Positions 6,896 to 31,800 of a stretch of DNA of 64,000 bases are shown piece after piece. A program made the position numbers and the translations under genes. The stretch covers positions 100,668 through 164,667 of the IMG/VR virus record IMGVR_UViG_3300037333_000013. One strand, written 5' to 3'. The stretch comes from a virus. The number at the start of each line of letters is the position of its first letter. The first letter of the stretch is position 1. The notes beneath the pieces are model-generated. The model had not been told where the DNA came from. It saw nothing but the letters and a program-made list of their open reading frames with translations, and made no database searches.

Positions 6896-7900
6896 TTATA
6901 GTACGAACTCTTCGTCAGTGACCTCCATATCATCATCTTCGAATGTATATTGTTGTGCGTCTTTAATCTGCTTCAAGTTTGTCATGATTGTACCCATTAG
7001 ACCAATGCGTGAGTGCATAGTAAGTGGTAAGCTACCTTTGTCTCCAAGGTTATCTAAGACAGACTTATCTAAAATGACACCTTGTCTATTTGACATAGAT
7101 GGTACATCAATGGTTGTGTTGTTATTGTCCGTCAATACTCTCGTTACGACGTATTGGTCATCTCCAAAGTTATCCCCACTTGTTACGTCTACGATAGAGA
7201 TTCCACTAGGTACATTGAACTTCTTAGCGAGCATATGTGGTTTGAAGAATACTGCCATGTCAGCAGGGTCTAACTGTTCATTCTCGCCACTCACAAAGAT
7301 TGACGTAGCAACAACAAATGATACTACATCTAAGTTTACAGATGTGAGTGTATCGGACATCGCATTGTCCCTGAACATCATACTGATATTTTTTCTGTTC
7401 TTTTTTGCCAAGTTGTGGAATGTCTGGAGCGTGTCAACGGTATTAGATGTGACATGCAATGTACTACTATCACCTATTGTAATCGTTCCAAAGTTCACAT
7501 CTCTCTCTAGGAATTCTTTCACAATGATTGGTGCCGCAACAGAACCAGTTGCACCACTAGCACTATGTACAAGTAGTGCAAAGTTTGTTTCGTTCTCTTC
7601 AAAGATTCCAGTATTATTCAAGAACTTCACAACCCCATTCTTAATCACATCTAAGTTCTCCCCACGAATTGTCCCACTACCAACAACACCTTTACTTCCA
7701 ATTCTGGTGTCGTCAATCTTGAAGAACTCGGCATCAATAGCAGTTGCTTTATGTTTGTTTGCCTCACTTGTGTCTAGCACTAAGTACTCAATATCAGCAA
7801 TCCCATTTCCAGTAATATCTAATGCGTCGAAGTAATCTTTGATTTCGTATGCAATATTTGCACCTGTCCCACCTAATGCGATGATTCTTAATTTTACCAT
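6896..7900 (-). CDS. phuZ: Phage tubulin PhuZ
   Basis: N-terminal IIALGGTGANI, LDTS, GSGTIRGEN, tubulin signature SASGATGS, T7 loop ENEQLDPAD, acidic C-tail ending EEFVL. Confidence 0.92.
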   Translation of the reverse strand: MVKLRIIALGGTGANIAYEIKDYFDALDITGNGIADIEYLVLDTSEANKHKATAIDAEFFKIDDTRIGSKGVVGSGTIRGENLDVIKNGVVKFLNNTGIFEENETNFALLVHSASGATGSVAAPIIVKEFLERDVNFGTITIGDSSTLHVTSNTVDTLQTFHNLAKKNRKNISMMFRDNAMSDTLTSVNLDVVSFVVATSIFVSGENEQLDPADMAVFFKPHMLAKKFNVPSGISIVDVTSGDNFGDDQYVVTRVLTDNNNTTIDVPSMSNRQGVILDKSVLDNLGDKGSLPLTMHSRIGLMGTIMTNLKQIKDAQQYTFEDDDMEVTDEEFVL

Positions 7901-8480: not shown

Positions 8481-9656
8481 CTACACGGTCATATAAATGG
8501 ACTTTAGGTTCTCCCAGTCTTCATCTACTAATGGTATAGTCATTCCAATCTTATATTGCGTGGGGTCCATCTCTTGTAAGAGTTCTTGTACTCTATCTCC
8601 ACCTAGCCACTTATTCATATACGGTAAGTCTGAACACTCATCACTAGGATAAATAATATCCTCTTTGATTGCACGTAAACGTATATTTGCTAAGTGCTTA
8701 ATATAACGTGTCAATACAATGGTATTTAGTCCTAACAGTGGGCCGTTTTCAAATAGGTAACCAGCCCACTCAATCTCATCTTGAACAGCTTCTGCATAGA
8801 GTCTACGCACTTTATCTTTACATTGGTGTGCTATCTCTACAAATCCTTCACTCTCGTTTGTCTTGAGAATCTTGACGAGTTTCTGGGAGATGTTCAAGTG
8901 ATTAAGCTCATCCCTAGCAATCAACTTCAACTCTTGACCATTCCCACTGAAAATCTTATTGTCCGCCATCTTAAAAGTACATGCAAATGAGACAAAGAAC
9001 CGTATGCCCTCAATGATGTTCCATGCAATAATAGCAAGGTACACAGACTCCTTCAGTTCATCTTCTGTTATAAAGTGGTAGAGTCCCATCTTAGATAAGA
9101 TACGTTTAACTTTATATTCGTTAGAGTTGGTGGACTTCTCATACTCATCAGCTTCCCACTTAGCTAACTTGATATATAAGTCTTCATAGAGTTCTTTAAT
9201 CTTACTAGCATGTGATGTAATGACTTTATCCACAGCAATTTGGTCAAAGATATCTGATGGGTTGTTATAGACATTACGTAAGATATATGTATAAGTATCG
9301 CTATGGTTTACTTCTTGTTGTTGCAGGATTGTTAGTGCTTTCTCAATCTCTGTGTTACAGAGCACTCTACCAATAGTAGATAGCAAACTCCTACCTTGAA
9401 TGGTATCCATAATAGATTGTCTTTTAATGTTTAAATCAAAGACCCTACGAATAGCAGAGTCCGCATTATCGTAGTCTGATTTATCGTTAATAAGTTTTAC
9501 CTCTTGCTTCTTCCAGAAGTCCTCTAACATACTCTCGCTTATGTCTTCAAATCTAGAATACTTTACAGTATCATATCTCTGTATACCTTTACCACTACCG
9601 AAGAAAATCTTCTCTTCGTGTGGGTTTGTTTTGTTTAATTCGTCATAGATATTCAT
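8481..9656 (-). CDS. nrdB: Ribonucleotide reductase class Ia beta subunit
   Basis: QRYD..KY, FW..EV, EVNHSDTY (iron ligands and radical Tyr), EGIRFFVSF, DELNH. Confidence 0.95.
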   Translation of the reverse strand: MNIYDELNKTNPHEEKIFFGSGKGIQRYDTVKYSRFEDISESMLEDFWKKQEVKLINDKSDYDNADSAIRRVFDLNIKRQSIMDTIQGRSLLSTIGRVLCNTEIEKALTILQQQEVNHSDTYTYILRNVYNNPSDIFDQIAVDKVITSHASKIKELYEDLYIKLAKWEADEYEKSTNSNEYKVKRILSKMGLYHFITEDELKESVYLAIIAWNIIEGIRFFVSFACTFKMADNKIFSGNGQELKLIARDELNHLNISQKLVKILKTNESEGFVEIAHQCKDKVRRLYAEAVQDEIEWAGYLFENGPLLGLNTIVLTRYIKHLANIRLRAIKEDIIYPSDECSDLPYMNKWLGGDRVQELLQEMDPTQYKIGMTIPLVDEDWENLKSIYMTV

Positions 9657-9687: not shown

Positions 9688-11898
9688 TTATACACCACAT
9701 CCACCACCAGCACAACCACTATCTATAACCACATCACCATTGTTAAATGTAGAGTAATAGAGTGAGTTCAGCCCTAGTGCATCTGCTTCATAAAGTACTT
9801 CAATCATTTTAAAGAGCTTAAACTTATCAACATCCTCACCCTCTTTCTCGATGTCTGTCTCAAACCAATCAACGTCAACTGATATCCCTTGGTCTATAAA
9901 CTCATTAATCACACCAATGGTTTTCAAGTACCTCTTGTTATCTATCTCTGTTCCGAATACATAGTACTCACTATACTTTTCAAACTCAGGAACAACAACA
10001 GGAATTGCACCATACTTTGTTGCTTTTAAGTAGAATGGGGATAGTGGTACTTTCACACCGTTCGTAGCACCGCTGATATCTCCAGATGTACCAGCTGGTG
10101 GAATAGCACTCAACGACAAGTTATATAATCCATACTGAATAATATCAGTGTTTAGTTTATCGATATCGTCTTCTGATACGTATTCCCAATTAAGTGTCTT
10201 GAGATACCCATCAGAGTATCTAGATTTCTCTCTAAACCATTTAGCTTCACCGTTCTCTTTTGCTAGTTTACAAGAAGCAACCAACAACCAATACTGAAAG
10301 TGTTCAATATACTCTTTTATTTTTGCATCTGCTTCATCTGTACCGAACTTCGTTTTAGACTTAGCTGTAAAGTGTGACAAGTCCGATACGCCCATACCTA
10401 AGTACCTACCATTCATCATTGTTCTTCGAATCATCTCATGTGGATACTCTTGCATATCTATGACTCTATTTCCCATCTTCACAAGTAGTTCACACACTCG
10501 TTTTAATCTATCTAAAGAACAGAATCCCATATTAACATTACCCAATATACAAAGTGGTAACTCTGCATTTGTATCATTAATAGATTGGATAGGGGTTGTC
10601 GGTAAGAATATCTCTACACATAGATTTGTGGTTCTGATAGCGACTTTAAATGGTCCATCGTTTGCGTTGCTAATAAAGATAGGGTGTATTCTACCTGTTT
10701 CGAAGAACTCAACAGCATATCTCTCTAATAGTTCCCTTGCAGAGATTTGTTTCTTTTTGATACTCTCATTACTCTCGTAGTTCTTATACGTCTCTTCCCA
10801 TAGTTCTGTGTCATAAAGGTTATCTAAAAGTAACCTAGTCTCATGTGAGCTAAAGAGTGTCCACATCTCATCGTTTAATGCTCTCTTTAATAATAGTTTA
10901 GGAATCAAAACAGAATATGTTAAACCTTTGACAGAGTTCTCCTCTGTTGACTTATTACTCTTTAGAGTAAGAAGCTTCTCAATATCCCAGTCCCATATTG
11001 CATTAATGTTATTTGCGGAGTTGTTTCTAGCACCCTGAGAGAATGGGTTAATCGATACTTCAAACCACCTCAATATAGGTATCTTTCCAGTATGTTTGAT
11101 AGTTCCATTTGAAATAGGCATACCATCACCTCTAATGTTCGCACTTGATAGACCAATACCAGAACGTAATGCACCCATATCTGTTAAGATTGTGACAGTT
11201 GCACTTATACCTTTTTTCGTATCCCCTGTTTCAATAACACAACACGAGGCATACCCATCTTTATTTGTTCTAAATCCTGACATAATTGGTGATGGTAAAC
11301 TGATTTCAAATCTATTAAAACTGTGATACATATCTATGATATCATCTTTATTTTTCGTATCTGAAAATGCCATCATTGCGATAAGCATATATGCCTCTTG
11401 TGGTGTCTCGATAAACCTACCAGAATCTTTATCTCCAACGAGATACTTATCTATGAATGTTCTTACGCCTATATACTTAATGTTTCTATTATAAGTATAA
11501 TCAATCTCATTTCCAAAAGCGTTTATCTCTTCTTCCGTATAAAGCTCTAGTATCTTGTTTGTATAGAACCCATCTTTAATGTTTCTCTTTACAATATCTA
11601 ATAGTGGCAATGGTGTTTTACCACCATAGACAGACTTATAAACACCTATCATTAATGCTCTCGACGAAGCATATTGGAAGTCAGGATATCTCAATGATAT
11701 TTTGTCTTTTAATAACGTCGATAGGGTATCTTGAATATCTCTTGTATGTATCCCACTATCCAAATGGAAAGACATCTCTTTCTTCACTTCATCGACTGGT
11801 ACTTTGAGTCCATGGCAAAGGTAATCAATCATTCTGTCAATTTTCCCTCTATCGAGGAGTTGCTTCTCCCCATTTTGTTTAATTACATATTGTTGCAT
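9688..11898 (-). CDS. nrdA: Ribonucleotide reductase class Ia alpha subunit
   Basis: N-terminal ATP-cone-like region, ETPQ, SLPSPIM, ASCC, TNLCVEI, SLYY and C-terminal CAGGGC. Confidence 0.95.
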   Translation of the reverse strand: MQQYVIKQNGEKQLLDRGKIDRMIDYLCHGLKVPVDEVKKEMSFHLDSGIHTRDIQDTLSTLLKDKISLRYPDFQYASSRALMIGVYKSVYGGKTPLPLLDIVKRNIKDGFYTNKILELYTEEEINAFGNEIDYTYNRNIKYIGVRTFIDKYLVGDKDSGRFIETPQEAYMLIAMMAFSDTKNKDDIIDMYHSFNRFEISLPSPIMSGFRTNKDGYASCCVIETGDTKKGISATVTILTDMGALRSGIGLSSANIRGDGMPISNGTIKHTGKIPILRWFEVSINPFSQGARNNSANNINAIWDWDIEKLLTLKSNKSTEENSVKGLTYSVLIPKLLLKRALNDEMWTLFSSHETRLLLDNLYDTELWEETYKNYESNESIKKKQISARELLERYAVEFFETGRIHPIFISNANDGPFKVAIRTTNLCVEIFLPTTPIQSINDTNAELPLCILGNVNMGFCSLDRLKRVCELLVKMGNRVIDMQEYPHEMIRRTMMNGRYLGMGVSDLSHFTAKSKTKFGTDEADAKIKEYIEHFQYWLLVASCKLAKENGEAKWFREKSRYSDGYLKTLNWEYVSEDDIDKLNTDIIQYGLYNLSLSAIPPAGTSGDISGATNGVKVPLSPFYLKATKYGAIPVVVPEFEKYSEYYVFGTEIDNKRYLKTIGVINEFIDQGISVDVDWFETDIEKEGEDVDKFKLFKMIEVLYEADALGLNSLYYSTFNNGDVVIDSGCAGGGCGV

Positions 11899-17282: not shown

Positions 17283-17590
17283 TTACAATCCCACCAGAAT
17301 ACTTCCAAATAGTAATGTAATGAACATCCTTTTTGTCTTTCTGATTGTCGATAAACATCATCGTTTCTAAATTTGTCACCGAGTCTTCTGGCAGCATCAT
17401 CTCTAAATGTTTCGTCGTAGATAGATGGACAATTCTCAACCTTCTCAAATCTAATGACTCCACTGTCATCTAGATAGAGTTTCTCTGGTACCCCATCTAA
17501 CTCTTTTAAGAACTCTGGATATAATTCAAATTCCTCTATAAAATCTTTTATAACGCTATCTCTTACATCATTTGATACAAACATTTTCAA
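17279..17590 (-). CDS. Hypothetical protein
   Basis: Coupled ORF in the operon. Confidence 0.65.
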   Translation of the reverse strand: MKMFVSNDVRDSVIKDFIEEFELYPEFLKELDGVPEKLYLDDSGVIRFEKVENCPSIYDETFRDDAARRLGDKFRNDDVYRQSERQKGCSLHYYLEVFWWDCK

Positions 17591-18197
17591 TTCCTTTTAC
17601 TCTAATTTTTCTAGCTAATTTGACATCGCTCGTTGTGTCAACCTCTACGAAGTAACGATAATGGTAACTCTCAAGGATACTCTTATCTTTCTTACCAAGC
17701 TCATATGATTTACCATTACCATCTTTACCATTAAAGCCTATCATATATTCAATGGGACACACAGTATCGCCATACATAAATTGTATTGCGTTGTATCTGA
17801 GTTCCTTTTCACTACGTGTTAATTTAATTATATATAATTCAAAACTATGTCTTATGCCTTGTTTTCCGATCACGTACTTTGTATTAATTATGTTTGAGCG
17901 GTAGATCGCATACCACATATCATCATATGTTTTACGTTGTGTTGGTGCGACTTTGTTAAAAATTATATAATTTAAAACAAAATGTCTGTTTGGTCCTCTG
18001 TATTTTTCAATGTGTTTGTATTGTTTTTTTACATCGTTTAAGTTATTTAAGAATGTTGAAACATGCGAATACCCACCACATATTTCAAAGTCAAACTCTT
18101 TAAGTTCCTTATCTTCAACGTGTTTATATCCAAAAGCCATTACGTGCTCAACCTCTTTTAGTGCATCTCTATATGCCTTTATCGTTCCTTTTCTCAT
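17568..18197 (-). CDS. Hypothetical basic protein
   Basis: 209-aa ORF with AAGGA SD. Confidence 0.75.
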   Translation of the reverse strand: MRKGTIKAYRDALKEVEHVMAFGYKHVEDKELKEFDFEICGGYSHVSTFLNNLNDVKKQYKHIEKYRGPNRHFVLNYIIFNKVAPTQRKTYDDMWYAIYRSNIINTKYVIGKQGIRHSFELYIIKLTRSEKELRYNAIQFMYGDTVCPIEYMIGFNGKDGNGKSYELGKKDKSILESYHYRYFVEVDTTSDVKLARKIRVKGIENVCIK

Positions 18198-18282: not shown

Positions 18283-18310
18283 TTATTAGCTAGGAAATCC
18301 TAGCTAATAA
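18283..18310 (-). terminator. Hairpin overlapping the dUTPase stop
   Basis: TTATTAGCTAGGA-AA-TCCTAGCTAATAA. Confidence 0.6.
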
Positions 18311-18890
18311 CATCTTTGTAGATTTCCTCTAGTGCGTTATAGATACTATCAATATCTTTGTGAACTTCTATAGCTGCTGCAATGTAGGTATTATCTTCTA
18401 CACCACCCCACATCTTAATGTATTCTCCGTCAGCATACCCATAGTTCTTTCTGAGTTTGTTTAAAGCATACTTTCCATAATAGATTCTTAACAGTGTATT
18501 GGTATCTAGTTTATACATATCACATAGCAATTCTATAACAGTAAGTCTAGTATTGATGCGTCTATCAAAGATTAAGAGTGCTAAGAGTTCGTCTAATTCT
18601 TTTGTTGTAATCACACATTCACCACTACACGGATTCACGAGTTCCGAAGATAGAACGAAGTGCAACAAGTCAACAATCTCAATATGCACATTTTCAATAT
18701 CGTCTTTTCCATCTTTCCAATGCTTATAGTTTGTAGACTCGATGAGTTCACCTACTTCAGCTTGTATACATAATTCAAAGTTTATCTTCTTGCCTGTTCT
18801 TTTGCAGATTCCGTGTTTATACTCATTACATAGCTCTGTATTTAACTCGTCTTGTAATCTAAGTAACTGCTCTTTCTTCTCTAATAACAT
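18300..18890 (-). CDS. dut: Dimeric all-alpha dUTPase (dUTPase_2, Campylobacter-type); start revised to 18890
   Basis: LQDELN, E..ELIES..YKHWK, EIVDLLHF, YYGKYALN.LR..GY..G.Y.K.W.G.EDN; AAGGA SD. Confidence 0.9.
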   Translation of the reverse strand: MLLEKKEQLLRLQDELNTELCNEYKHGICKRTGKKINFELCIQAEVGELIESTNYKHWKDGKDDIENVHIEIVDLLHFVLSSELVNPCSGECVITTKELDELLALLIFDRRINTRLTVIELLCDMYKLDTNTLLRIYYGKYALNKLRKNYGYADGEYIKMWGGVEDNTYIAAAIEVHKDIDSIYNALEEIYKDVIS

Positions 18891-23839: not shown

Positions 23840-25954
23840 ATGATTCTATTTAAAAAAGATTGGAAGAAGTATAAGGGTGCGATTGTTGACTATAAAACAA
23901 CAAATATCGAAGCACTAAAGACGGCATTCATATATGAGAAGATGGGTGTGAAGAATTGGCAGTTTATACTCGCACTTCATAATCCAGAACTACAAGGTAT
24001 TGACCCACTAGCAAATGACTTACCTAGACACATTAGAGACATGATTCACGATGAGATGAGTGAGAATCCATGGTACTATTTTAGGGAAGTGGCTAGGGTC
24101 CCAGCAAAAGGTGCGATTGAACCAGTTAGGTTTAGACTCAACCGTGCCAATGTGGCACTCTATTGGTGTTACTTTAACCATAAGACAACACTGCTGATAC
24201 AAGCTAGACAAACAGGAAAGTCACTCTCTACAAACCAACTCTATGTATGGATAATAATGTTTGGTTCTGAGAATTATAGTATAGAACTCTTAACGAAAGA
24301 TAACAAGCTACGTGTAGAGAACATTGATGTACTAAAGAAGATTATTGACTTATTACCATCGTGGATGAACTTCCGTTCCAAGAAAGACTCCAACAATAAT
24401 GAATATATCAGCATTAATGCAAAACGCAATAGTTTTAACACAAACGTAGCACAGATGACAGAGACAGGTGCATTTAAAGTAGGTAGGGGTCTTACTGCAC
24501 CAACAGTTGGGGTGGATGAGATTTGTTTTATCTCAAACCTTAGCATTACGTTATCTGCACTACTACCATCAATGGGTGCTGCGAGAGATTCAGCAAGAGA
24601 TTCTGGACAACCATATGGTACTATGTTCTATACGACAGCTGGTTTTCTAGACGACCCTGTTGGAGAATATGTTTACGATGAGATATACTCAAAGGCATAC
24701 CCATTTAGAGAAGAACTCTTTGATTGCGAAGATGTGAAAGCAGTTGATGATGTTGTTGGCAAAGTATCAAAAGCTGGTATTGCACTCATAGAGATGAACC
24801 ACAGGAAATTAGGGTATACCGATGAATGGGTTAAAGATAAGATGGCAACAGCATTGGCTAAAGGAGAACGTGCCGCCGCAGACTACCTTTTGATATGGTC
24901 TAGGGGTAAAGTAACATCTGCACTAGATAAAAATATTATTAAGAGGTTGGAGAACTCTATTCGTGACTCAGAGTCAAATGAGATAACCCCAGAGAACTTA
25001 ACAATAGAGTGGTATATAAGCGACGAGAAACGCGACGAGTATCGCAATAAACCATTCGTGATTGGTCTAGATACATCGAGTGCATTTGGCGATGATGATA
25101 TTGGTATGCATCTACGATGCCCACTATCAGGAGAAACGTTAGGGAAAGGGAAGTATAACAATATCTCACTCAGTACGTTTGGTGAGTTCATGTATAACTT
25201 TATGATGAAGTATAAGAAATCTATCTTAGTGATAGAACGACACTCGTCAGCTATGGGCATATTAGACCACTTAGAGTCACTCTTCCGTGCATCCGGAGAA
25301 AATATCTTCAAACGTGTCTTTAACTGGGTAGTAGATGATTACAAAGCAAGGGAGAATGAATATAGAGAGCTACTATACGGCGATGGTCAACGCAATCCAG
25401 AAGTTTTCTACATTAAACATAGAAAGAAGTTTGGGTTTGTCACAGCTGGTGCAGGTAAATCATCTCGTAATATGCTTTACTCCGAAGTACTGATGGAGTC
25501 TATTAAGTATACTGGTGACTTAACACACGATAGGAACTTGGTATACCAAATGATTAAACTAGAAGTGAAAGATGGTAGAATTGACCACAAAAGTGGTGAA
25601 CACGATGACCTCGTCTTTGCTTATATGTTGACGTACTGGTTCTTGACACGTGCGAAGAACTTAAAATATTATGGTATCAACCCAAACTTGGTATTAAGTA
25701 GCGTGGTGATTAAAGATGAAGAGATGATAGATGAACGTGCGGATATGCAAGATAGAGCAAAACGTAAAAAGCTCATTGATGAGATGGCTAGCATTCTAGA
25801 CACTATGGAAGTGACTGGTGACAGGGTACTTGTTTACAAGTTAAATCATAGATTAAAGATTTTAAAGACGAAGCTAAAAGATTCGGATATCTTGAGTTTA
25901 AACATAGAGGAGAGAATCAGTGAGTTATCGAAAAGACATAAGGTTGGATTATGA
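23840..25954 (+). CDS. terL: Terminase large subunit (phiKZ gp25-like)
   Basis: NPWYYFREV, Walker A RQTGKS, GRGLT..VGVDE Walker B, TTAG, nuclease GLDTS and HDDLVFA. Confidence 0.95.
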   Translation: MILFKKDWKKYKGAIVDYKTTNIEALKTAFIYEKMGVKNWQFILALHNPELQGIDPLANDLPRHIRDMIHDEMSENPWYYFREVARVPAKGAIEPVRFRLNRANVALYWCYFNHKTTLLIQARQTGKSLSTNQLYVWIIMFGSENYSIELLTKDNKLRVENIDVLKKIIDLLPSWMNFRSKKDSNNNEYISINAKRNSFNTNVAQMTETGAFKVGRGLTAPTVGVDEICFISNLSITLSALLPSMGAARDSARDSGQPYGTMFYTTAGFLDDPVGEYVYDEIYSKAYPFREELFDCEDVKAVDDVVGKVSKAGIALIEMNHRKLGYTDEWVKDKMATALAKGERAAADYLLIWSRGKVTSALDKNIIKRLENSIRDSESNEITPENLTIEWYISDEKRDEYRNKPFVIGLDTSSAFGDDDIGMHLRCPLSGETLGKGKYNNISLSTFGEFMYNFMMKYKKSILVIERHSSAMGILDHLESLFRASGENIFKRVFNWVVDDYKARENEYRELLYGDGQRNPEVFYIKHRKKFGFVTAGAGKSSRNMLYSEVLMESIKYTGDLTHDRNLVYQMIKLEVKDGRIDHKSGEHDDLVFAYMLTYWFLTRAKNLKYYGINPNLVLSSVVIKDEEMIDERADMQDRAKRKKLIDEMASILDTMEVTGDRVLVYKLNHRLKILKTKLKDSDILSLNIEERISELSKRHKVGL

Positions 25955-29628: not shown

Positions 29629-31800
29629 ATGGAATATGTAAACGGAGCACCAACTCACTATGCCTCCGGCGTAGAAGATGGTTCAACTCAGAAGTTATAC
29701 CCAACAGAGAAAAAGACTTGTCAATGTCATCCATTGATGTTTTTAAATACTAAGAAAGGACAATATAAAGAGACCACAGTCATTGGTGCTGAGTTTAATG
29801 CTACTTATGGATTAGATAGTCTTAATCCACTCAAGAAGTTCTTTAACCACCAATCACTCTTTGCGTTAGAAGCAATCGGTTTGGCTGCACAAGTGACAGT
29901 GATGAGAGCAATGTATGTACCGATTGACCCAGACGACAATCCCACAAATGGTAGAGCAAACATTACTATCTTTGTTACACGTACATCAAGTGACTTAGCA
30001 GACTCATACCCTATCAAAAGAGATGAGAATGGTTTTGGTGTCTGGGAAGATGGCGAGTGGACAGTGGACGATAGTGACGATGACGCAAAGGTGCCAGTAC
30101 AATACTACCAACTATCAGCTCGATTTATGTCTGATGAAGATATTGATGCACTGCAAGTCAGAACATTTGAAGATGCTATTACAAAAGGTGATGAGACAGT
30201 AGATGGCGAAGTGACACCTATCATGACAATCAAATCTATTGCACACGGGGACTACTACAATGGTATTGGACTGAAGCTCTATCCATTAACAGGTGACAGT
30301 GCAGATAAAGATATGATGGATAAAGCACGTAATATGGCGTACTTTATAGGTCTTGTTGATATGGAGAGTGGTGAAGAGACGATTATTAAAACAATCCAAT
30401 CGACAGACGGCTATACTGTTACATTTGACCCAAATGCATCACACCCTGTCACTGGTGTCACAACAACATTAGAAGACTTGTTCCCTAAAGGATTTGAGAA
30501 TACAACGCGTCCAGAGTACGAATATAAGGCACCTATCATCGGAGAAGTCATCTATCACAGGATTGGTATTCGTCCACTATTTGAGAATATCTTGACGAAA
30601 GAAGCGGAAAACTTCGATGGAACAGTGATTCCCTGGAGTGACTTTACCGAGTTTGAGTCAGAAGCAGCAAAAGAAGAAGCACTCGCTGTACCATACATCT
30701 TAAACTTCATTAACTGTATCTACACATCTGGTGCACCTATGGAGAACACACGTCGTTCTGATAACCTCGTACTTAATGATGAGTCATTGGCATATGCTGG
30801 TAACAGAATCAATATGACAAAAGATACCACACTATTCTTAGAAGGTGGTCTAGATGGAATGAATATTGTAGACAACTACGATGACTATCTTGTAGAACAC
30901 GAAGCAGACTTAATTCGTAGACTCACGGCATATGCAGACAAGGACAGTGAACAGACACACTTAGCACTCTCTACTGTCTCAGAGTTTGTAGATACTGGTT
31001 ATACATTAGACACGACCTTGAAGATGGGTATTTTTACTTCATATCGTACTGATGTGAGACTGATTGCGTCTACATATGATGTCAACCCACTAAATAAAGA
31101 TATCAGTGTACAAGAACATATCTCTAGAGGTGTATTACTGAATGCTATCTTATCTTTATCTATCGAGTCAGCTGACTTTAATACACCTGGATTTAGGACA
31201 GCTATCTTAGCAGGTTCTGGGCTAAGTACCACTGGCTTCTTTAGATACAGAGTATCAACCGCATTAGACTTTGCACTCAAGAATGTAAAGATGTTCCGTG
31301 GAGATACGTGGGATACAACATATGAGTTCAGCTACGATGAGGGAAATATTGTAGAGTACCTGACTGATGTAACACCTAGACGTATGCCTGAGAGCCAGAA
31401 GACAAATGCGTGGGATGCTGGGATTATTTGGACAGATGCTGCAGACACACTGAAAGTAAGATACCCACAAATTGGAACGATATATCCTGATGATACTTCT
31501 ATCTTAAAGAACTGGTATATTGCTGTGGCTGTCTGTTACATAGAGAAGAAACTTGATGAAGCACACAGAGAAGTTCAAGGTGCTGCTGTATTTACACAAG
31601 CACAGCAAATCAAGAAGACACAAGAGAAGATTGTAGATAAAATCAGTGGTAAGTTTGCGAACATTGTAAATCCAACTGTTGAAGTCTTCAAGACACCTAG
31701 AGACATGTCCGCTGGATATGCTGTAACTGCCAGAGTTAAAATCTGGGGTCCATCGATGCTCACTGTACTAAACAGTAGTATCTTAGCGTTAAGAGCGTAA
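29629..31800 (+). CDS. Tail sheath protein (phiKZ gp29-like)
   Basis: NGAP....GVED, HPLMFL..KKG, YG.DS.....FFNHQ, LEGGLDG, DTGYTL, ESADFNTP and TIYPDDTSIL. Confidence 0.88.
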   Translation: MEYVNGAPTHYASGVEDGSTQKLYPTEKKTCQCHPLMFLNTKKGQYKETTVIGAEFNATYGLDSLNPLKKFFNHQSLFALEAIGLAAQVTVMRAMYVPIDPDDNPTNGRANITIFVTRTSSDLADSYPIKRDENGFGVWEDGEWTVDDSDDDAKVPVQYYQLSARFMSDEDIDALQVRTFEDAITKGDETVDGEVTPIMTIKSIAHGDYYNGIGLKLYPLTGDSADKDMMDKARNMAYFIGLVDMESGEETIIKTIQSTDGYTVTFDPNASHPVTGVTTTLEDLFPKGFENTTRPEYEYKAPIIGEVIYHRIGIRPLFENILTKEAENFDGTVIPWSDFTEFESEAAKEEALAVPYILNFINCIYTSGAPMENTRRSDNLVLNDESLAYAGNRINMTKDTTLFLEGGLDGMNIVDNYDDYLVEHEADLIRRLTAYADKDSEQTHLALSTVSEFVDTGYTLDTTLKMGIFTSYRTDVRLIASTYDVNPLNKDISVQEHISRGVLLNAILSLSIESADFNTPGFRTAILAGSGLSTTGFFRYRVSTALDFALKNVKMFRGDTWDTTYEFSYDEGNIVEYLTDVTPRRMPESQKTNAWDAGIIWTDAADTLKVRYPQIGTIYPDDTSILKNWYIAVAVCYIEKKLDEAHREVQGAAVFTQAQQIKKTQEKIVDKISGKFANIVNPTVEVFKTPRDMSAGYAVTARVKIWGPSMLTVLNSSILALRA

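Follow-up and report, generated by a model that had tools for sequence, protein, structure and literature searches.

A dimeric dUTPase gene in a highly divergent chimallivirus and the candidate Campylobacterota host of the phage

A gene for a dimeric (all-alpha) deoxyuridine triphosphate nucleotidohydrolase (dUTPase) lies in a 64,000-nucleotide stretch of viral DNA, positions 100,668 to 164,667 of the IMG/VR record IMGVR_UViG_3300037333_000013. This stretch, here called the window, makes up the final 64 kb of a linear contig of 164,667 bp, which CheckV estimates to be about 62% complete and which has a guanine plus cytosine (G+C) content of 36.4%. An earlier note on the window had taken the enzyme, among other features, as a sign of a nucleus-forming phage infecting Campylobacterota. 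We describe the gene, the phage and the evidence on its host. The single best-supported candidate is a member of the Campylobacterota akin to Sulfurovum, Sulfurimonas or the Arcobacteraceae, to which we give a probability of about one in two. What points there is a DNA methyltransferase gained in this phage lineage, the scores of the RecJ and LigA proteins and a purging of the sites GATC, GCGC, CATG and GGCC, and not the dUTPase.

The dUTPase open reading frame (ORF) lies on the minus strand, with its ATG at 18890 and its stop at 18300, and the Shine-Dalgarno (SD) sequence AAAGGA lies 5 bases before the ATG. The protein matches the Pfam family dUTPase_2 (PF08761) with an E-value of 4e-16 and 60.2 bits, above the curated threshold of 22.9. 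This match spans the N-terminal half only, and a phmmer alignment to the structure 1W2Y covers both halves. The closest solved structure is the Campylobacter jejuni dUTPase (1W2Y/2CIC; E 2.4e-25, 92.9 bits), while the trypanosomatid dUTPase structures score lower, at 52-57 bits. Both strings that the earlier note had quoted as C. jejuni-like, GICKRTGKKINFELCIQAEVGELIESTNYKHWK and GYADGEYIKMWGGVEDN, are present in the protein, and with 1W2Y as the best solved relative this part of the note was correct. When the query is aligned with 40 homologues, the 41 sequences share without exception the four acidic metal-binding residues of ExxE...ExxD (E45, E48, E71, D74), and the blocks KHWK and GY.DG.Y.K.W..EDN vary little or not at all. 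An ESM Atlas model of the sequence has a predicted template modelling score (pTM) of 0.88, and a template modelling score of 0.80 to a 'dUTPase, dimeric' cluster from Campylobacterota. The ORF is thus a real and intact all-alpha dimeric dUTPase.

The enzyme looks catalytically intact, and by homology it would convert dUTP (and probably dUDP) to dUMP with metal ions held by the four carboxylates. Such an activity would keep uracil out of the phage DNA and provide dUMP for thymidylate synthesis. The gene sits in a block of nucleotide and DNA metabolism along with NrdA, NrdB, a C5 cytosine DNA methyltransferase (C5-MTase), a helicase and RecJ. Next to it is a 209 amino acid (aa) ORF of no known function (17568-18197, minus strand), which in a near-identical strain is broken into two short fragments, a strain indel.

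Compared with the C. jejuni enzyme, the blocks ...ELI(D/E)S..(Y/W)KHWK... and ...GY.DG.Y.K.W.G.EDN... align and the metal-binding residues are kept, but the phage protein is shorter (196 aa against 229 aa). It is also only about 31-37% identical to the Campylobacterota dUTPases, from which it is set apart on a long branch of its own together with a 96%-identical metagenome copy. Among phages, the dimeric dUTPases of the record named 'Acinetobacter phage MD-2021a' and of Synechococcus phage BUCT-ZZ01 belong to the same family at 27-33% identity, and the dimeric Duts of Staphylococcus aureus phages are further phage-borne members (PMC5122711). They share the role of a phage nucleotide-pool enzyme; unlike the present one, none of those compared comes from a chimallivirus.

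The genes discussed here are listed in Table 1.

Table 1. Features of the window, with positions counted from its first nucleotide and the evidence for each assignment.
Feature	Position	Strand	Evidence
Chimallin (phage-nucleus shell protein), N-terminal 448 codons	1..1346	-	phrog_4795 E 1.6e-8; hhalign
PhuZ tubulin	6896..7900	-	phrog_4733 E 5.3e-37
NrdB, ribonucleotide reductase small subunit	8481..9656	-	PF00268 E 1.2e-34
NrdA, class I ribonucleotide reductase large subunit	9688..11898	-	phrog_84 E 1.6e-190
C5 cytosine DNA methyltransferase, 340 aa	11990..13012	+	PF00145 E 1.9e-68
Dimeric (all-alpha) dUTPase, 196 aa	18300..18890	-	Pfam PF08761, PDB 1W2Y match, invariant E45/E48/E71/D74, upstream SD AAAGGA
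RecJ-like single-stranded DNA exonuclease (DHH, DHHA1, RecJ_OB), 499 aa	18940..20439	-	Pfam; phrog_2484 E 2.6e-50
Terminase large subunit	23840..25954	+	phrog_2
Tail sheath	29629..31800	+	phrog_3242 E 4e-82
phiKZ-type multisubunit RNA polymerase beta subunit, 1337 aa	39532..43545	-	phrog_3148 E 2.5e-251
Short NAD-dependent DNA ligase (LigA), adenylation and OB domains only, 373 aa	61381..62502	-	PF01653 and PF03120

The chimallin gene encodes 613 aa and extends past the left edge of the window (L007:5172-7013). Its PHROG match, to 'nuclear shell protein', is weak. The ORF gave no match in Pfam, the PDB or a BLAST search of INPHARED, and a single-sequence AlphaFold model of it had no usable fold (predicted local distance difference test, pLDDT, 32). 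A profile built from this protein and its homologue of 38% identity from a sister phage was therefore aligned by hhalign to a profile of phiKZ gp54 and the chimallins of PS119XW, DT01, Simmy50 and Eowyn, and matched these five known chimallins over 505 columns with a probability of 96.2% and an E-value of 2e-9. In the rest of the contig we find PhiKZ_MCP, a divergent PolB (divDNApol), a DnaB (divDNAB) and tail-tube families. The terminase is at most 38.5% and the RNA polymerase (RNAP) 23-27% identical to those of cultured chimalliviruses. From its gene content the contig is a genuine and very divergent chimallivirus, a phiKZ-like jumbo phage carrying chimallin and PhuZ, and a phage nucleus is predicted from these genes. 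The nucleus-forming phage of the earlier note is hence upheld at gene level, by chimallin, PhuZ, the phiKZ-type RNAP, the capsid and the terminase.

With the Chimalliviridae (phiKZ, 201phi2-1, Goslar, RAY) the phage shares chimallin, PhuZ, a split phiKZ-type RNAP, a phiKZ-type capsid, the terminase, the sheath and an S80 protease. It differs from them in its extreme divergence, with a chimallin beyond BLAST detection, in having a dimeric dUTPase and a C5-MTase, and in its putative host phylum. GATC and GCGC are nearly all lost from its DNA, unlike that of phiKZ. Very acidic structural proteins had also been noted for this phage; the predicted isoelectric points bear this out in part, being low for the sheath (4.65), for the tube (4.72) and for a pair of proteins of 540 aa (4.3-4.5), but the median of the proteome is just 5.5.

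The metagenome JGI Ga0256828 holds a 96.9%-identical strain of this phage as well as a sister phage, Ga0256828_1000553, with a G+C content of 28%. The NrdA of the sister is 57% and its chimallin 38% identical to ours, and synteny is kept from a 589-aa gene through NrdAB to chimallin. No PhuZ homologue was seen at the syntenic position in the half of the sister contig that was read (L112:4964-5607, against 6896-7900 of the window). In the near-identical strain the neighbouring proteins are 98-100% identical to ours and chimallin is 85% identical over 552 aa (L111:17278-18933), and chimallin thus appears to evolve much faster than the genes around it.

The C5-MTase is the gene that most clearly resembles genes of Campylobacterota. 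It is solitary, and lies on the strand opposite to its neighbours between the 589-aa 'hairpin' gene and NrdA. At the corresponding junction of the sister phage (L112:1515-1594) the MTase is absent, which makes it a lineage-specific gain. A search of 5.8 billion proteins gave about 120 top matches of 55-61% identity over the full length. Those named by organism were Aliarcobacter cryaerophilus, A. butzleri, Poseidonibacter ostreae and, twice, Sulfurovum; the remaining names were 'hydrothermal vent metagenome' and one Bacteroidetes metagenome-assembled genome (MAG). Orthologues of 55-59% identity were present in 3 of 301 sampled Campylobacterota genomes, and the best match among 301 Pseudomonadota reached 48%. 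Among the PLSDB plasmids the best match was 46%, a result which tells that the 55-61% clade is specific and is otherwise uninformative. Rooting the tree on Pseudomonadota places the phage MTase, with a support of 96, as sister to the entire clade of 117 members that is rich in Campylobacterota. The relatives are NgoFVII/NgoAVII-like MTases of restriction-modification (RM) systems in Arcobacteraceae and Sulfurovum; one orthologue adjoins a nuclease with an RE_NgoFVII_C domain and another adjoins Vsr. The phage copy differs from them in having no adjacent nuclease and in branching outside the bacterial clade. The site GCSGC, suggested by the NgoFVII-like neighbour of one orthologue, is not depleted in the phage (19 observed against 14 expected).

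The second line of evidence is the avoidance of short palindromes. Relative to a second-order Markov expectation over the whole contig, GATC occurs 5 times against 717 expected, GCGC 0 times against 66, CATG 197 against 786 and GGCC 15 against 54; the remaining twelve palindromes of 4 bp occur at 0.6-1.2 times their expected counts. Of the 6-mers, CTATAG, CTGCAG, ACTAGT and GAGCTC are likewise low. The sister phage has the same four-site pattern and avoids ACGT too, and a phiKZ fragment of 26 kb shows no such avoidance. For comparison we took 40 kb from each of 30 genomes of Campylobacterota, 30 of Pseudomonadota and 10 of Bacteroidota. In this order, the median ratios of observed to expected counts were 0.61, 0.93 and 0.82 for GATC, 0.68, 1.05 and 0.94 for GCGC, 0.69, 0.94 and 0.82 for CATG, and 0.41, 0.87 and 0.68 for GGCC. 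A score over the four sites was lower in Campylobacterota than in Pseudomonadota (p 3e-9), than in 10 low-GC Pseudomonadota (p 0.0013) and than in Bacteroidota (p 0.0008), and the difference persisted after general palindrome avoidance had been subtracted (p 0.0012). The four palindromes avoided by the phage are those most depleted in Campylobacterota genomes. Estibariz et al. (PMC6412003) compared four H. pylori strains; only four motifs were methylated in every one of them, and GCGC, GATC and CATG are three of these. As positive controls, Campylobacter phage CP220 and Helicobacter phage KHP30 both showed strong 4-bp palindrome avoidance, with CATG found 3 times against 72 expected in 40 kb of CP220. 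One of the Campylobacterota genomes (G058, 37% G+C) avoids all four sites, with GATC at 0.09, GCGC at 0.36, CATG at 0.11 and GGCC at 0.04 of expectation.

RecJ and LigA were judged by their score distributions in the three phyla. In 121 Campylobacterota the best RecJ scores had a median of about 81 bits and a maximum of 133; in 121 Pseudomonadota these values were about 54 and 99. At E<=1e-23 some 55 of the 121 Campylobacterota genomes passed, against 3 of 121 Pseudomonadota and 2 of 121 Bacteroidota. For LigA at E<=1e-25 the corresponding counts were 53, 1 and 17, each out of 121. The nearest ESM Atlas clusters of RecJ are viral. Phylogenies of both proteins had been proposed in the earlier note. 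The scores of both are higher against Campylobacterota than against the two other phyla, which we count as weak support for this host.

Several findings weigh against a Campylobacterota host, and those on the dUTPase remove the very marker from which the idea had started. An exhaustive HMMER search of 1.84 billion representatives returned one 96%-identical copy, and no other match exceeded 121 bits or 41% identity. A pattern-seeded scan across 185,579 species, each represented by one genome, found 576 relatives. The best 80 of these 576 cellular proteins comprise 74 from Campylobacterota (Nitratiruptor, Sulfurovum, Sulfurimonas, Sulfuricurvum, Arcobacteraceae and Helicobacter), 3 from Flavobacteriales MAGs and 1 from a Bathymodiolus gill symbiont. 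Campylobacterota lead this list mainly because the family is common there: with this query it was detected in 44 of 76 sampled Campylobacterota genomes (about 58%) and in 5 of 101 Pseudomonadota (about 5%), with overlapping scores. The phage enzyme is about equally far (31-37% identity) from all cellular homologues. A tree of 218 rows gives it and its near-copy a common stem 1.36 substitutions per site long; the pair has no supported place within Campylobacterota, and its grouping with a handful of unlabelled metagenome sequences is likewise unsupported. The dimeric dUTPase from the record named Acinetobacter phage MD-2021a served as a negative control and was compared with the same 80 cellular proteins; its best score was 118 bits (37% identity) with a median of 100, and that of the present dUTPase 116 bits (35%) with a median of 102. 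The feature neighbours of the enzyme in the ESM Atlas are labelled mostly Pseudomonadota, Atlas taxa being leads only. Further, in the cultured, jumbo-sized Campylobacter phage CP220 the annotated dUTPase is trimeric (PF00692) and not dimeric (L260:5952-6410).

With equal distances to the cellular homologues, an unsupported position in the tree and an equal score of the control, the dUTPase was ruled out as a host marker. By these comparisons the likeness to the C. jejuni enzyme is a family-wide property and not a property of the host, and phages assigned to other phyla carry dimeric dUTPases that are equally 'Campylobacter-like'. The inference from the dUTPase to the host, central to the earlier note, does not hold. 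Two smaller observations on the enzyme lean the other way. Out of 50,697 phage records, 314 match the terminase of this phage and only 3 match its dUTPase at E<=1e-5, none of them among the listed terminase matches. From this we take the dUTPase to have been gained in this lineage, from a pool with mostly Campylobacterota cellular members, which is a weak point in favour of that phylum. When the ten top-scoring metagenome dUTPase clusters were looked up (the nine best matches plus P0030), the sole named one was Sulfurimonadaceae/Thiovulaceae.

The evidence from the other genes is also qualified. In the MTase tree the phage protein falls outside the Campylobacterota-rich clade, as its sister, so the phylogeny that had been called for gives a moderate signal and no nesting. 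The bacterial orthologues lie in mobile RM contexts, in one case with Vsr and TniQ and in another with a relaxase and the NgoFVII-type nuclease domain. RecJ and LigA are 23-32% identical to anything, their lead in Campylobacterota shrinks under composition-adjusted scoring (143/126/124 against 119/112/111 bits), and phage homologues of both score as well or better. NrdA, which we added to the comparison, carries no Campylobacterota signal as judged from its matches: 0 of 86 Campylobacterota genomes reach E 1e-95, and the matches of 600-700 bits are metagenome proteins that are unlabelled or labelled 'Clostridiales'. These nearest relatives are 43-46% identical, the 'Clostridiales' ones lying on MAG contigs of 3-4 kb. 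Some distant NrdA matches carry intein or Hint domains (PF14890, PF07591).

As to the sites, the correlation of the full profile of 16 palindromes is no higher for Campylobacterota than for GC-matched genomes (p 0.31). ACGT, GTAC and TCGA are avoided in Campylobacterota as well, and in this phage they are not. The sites of the control phages overlap with ours in part only, CP220 avoiding CATG, and KHP30 avoiding ACGT, GTAC, TCGA and GGCC. The whole contig contains no tRNAs, and a search with the terminase through 401 Campylobacterota genomes turned up no mis-binned contigs of related phages. The cultured relatives, judged by terminase and RNAP, all have hosts among the Gammaproteobacteria, Betaproteobacteria or Bacillota. 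Finally, the host-gene and site comparisons cover three phyla only.

Other clues are neutral. The G+C content and k-mer composition were rejected as host evidence, as the 26 kb fragment of phiKZ has 38% G+C despite a GC-rich host; the Pseudomonas host of phiKZ is GC-rich. The contig is AT-rich, as had been said, but since phiKZ itself is AT-rich this is uninformative. The claim that AAGGA serves as the SD sequence of most genes agrees with our survey of the 15 bases upstream of 151 crude ORFs, where AAGGA is the commonest pentamer (67 of 151) and an SD-like tetramer precedes 104 of 151 ORFs (69%), against 7.5% of random sites. Bacteroidota and their phages largely lack SD-led initiation, and the strong SD usage hence argues against a Bacteroidota host and not for Campylobacterota specifically. 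A search of the partial contig for spanin or lipobox genes, as proof of a diderm host, gave no credible candidate, and single-protein and exact-DNA scans of IMG/VR revealed no related phage contigs.

The strongest of the alternatives is a host among the Pseudomonadota, for instance a gammaproteobacterial sulfur oxidiser or heterotroph of the same habitat, in line with the hosts of nearly all cultured chimalliviruses; the Campylobacterota-like genes would then be explained by family distribution and by lateral transfer in a common environment. By terminase and RNAP, the closest cultured relatives are all phages of Xanthomonas, Erwinia, Burkholderia, Ralstonia, Vibrio and similar bacteria, and the hosts predicted in a published survey of 406 phages with chimallin/PhuZ are mainly Enterobacterales, Alteromonadales, Pseudomonadales and Vibrionales. 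With a terminase no more than 38% identical, though, the hosts of these cultured relatives say little about the host of this phage. The labels of the ESM Atlas neighbours, the dimeric dUTPases in about 5% of sampled Pseudomonadota with their overlapping scores, and the equally Campylobacter-like dUTPase of the Acinetobacter-phage-named record are all compatible with a pseudomonadotal host, and MTases of mobile RM systems do cross phyla. On the other side, the closest MTase among Pseudomonadota reaches 48% identity and that among Campylobacterota 59%, the RecJ and LigA scores are lowest against Pseudomonadota, and GATC, GCGC and CATG are essentially undepleted in the 30 sampled genomes of that phylum. 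We therefore regard a pseudomonadotal host as unlikely, if the most serious competitor.

It could also be that the host belongs to a phylum outside the three sampled (Bacillota/Clostridia, Aquificota, Desulfobacterota or Fusobacteriota), Campylobacterota being merely the nearest of those tested. The named NrdA relatives are Clostridiales MAGs, the best phage matches of RecJ come from Bacillota phages, those of LigA include Clostridium and Streptococcus phages, and phiKZ-like RNAP phages of Bacillus and Staphylococcus exist. The lack of a spanin or lipobox gene as diderm proof fits as well, and strong avoidance of 4-bp palindromes is known from other RM-rich taxa too. Against this, the dUTPase scan of 185,579 species had 74 of its best 80 matches in Campylobacterota, and the named top matches in the MTase search of 5.8 billion proteins were almost all from that phylum. 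Chimallin and PhuZ together are so far known as a trait of phages of Gram-negative hosts. We consider such a host rather improbable. A marine Bacteroidota host (Flavobacteriales) is very improbable, since the 3 Flavobacteriales MAGs among the best 80 dUTPase matches, the one MTase top match named Bacteroidetes and the intermediate LigA count (17/121) stand against an SD-like motif before 69% of ORFs with AAGGA as top pentamer, a RecJ threshold passed by 2 of 121 genomes only, and just mild depletion of the four avoided sites in Bacteroidota genomes.

A Campylobacterota host thus remains the favoured reading, although on other evidence than that first proposed: the MTase, RecJ and LigA, and the site avoidance lean towards it, while the dUTPase, the AT-richness and NrdA give no support. 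In the survey of 406 phages Campylobacter or epsilon-proteobacteria are nowhere mentioned. Our literature search did not find nucleus-forming phages and Campylobacterota treated together in substance, and gave nothing relevant on chimallin and hydrothermal habitats, nor on restriction-site avoidance in jumbo phages. Tentatively, we suggest that this is a chimallivirus lineage infecting Campylobacterota, a phylum unreported for nucleus-forming phages in the literature searched, and that this lineage, unlike phiKZ, has nearly completely purged GATC and GCGC from its genome and acquired a host-type C5 methylase.

The study also carries a methodological point, as resemblance to the C. jejuni dUTPase is a family trait that should be discounted as a host clue. 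If the host is a Campylobacterota bacterium, nucleus-based phage replication would reach a phylum that is dominant in sulfidic and hydrothermal habitats and includes major pathogens, and jumbo phages of this kind would be worth studying in Arcobacter, Sulfurovum or Campylobacter systems. The extreme purging of restriction sites in a phage with chimallin bears on how complete the protection by the shell is against restriction enzymes. Should a Campylobacterota chimallivirus with purged sites and an acquired methylase prove true, the phage nucleus would not spare the phage from Type II restriction in RM-rich hosts.

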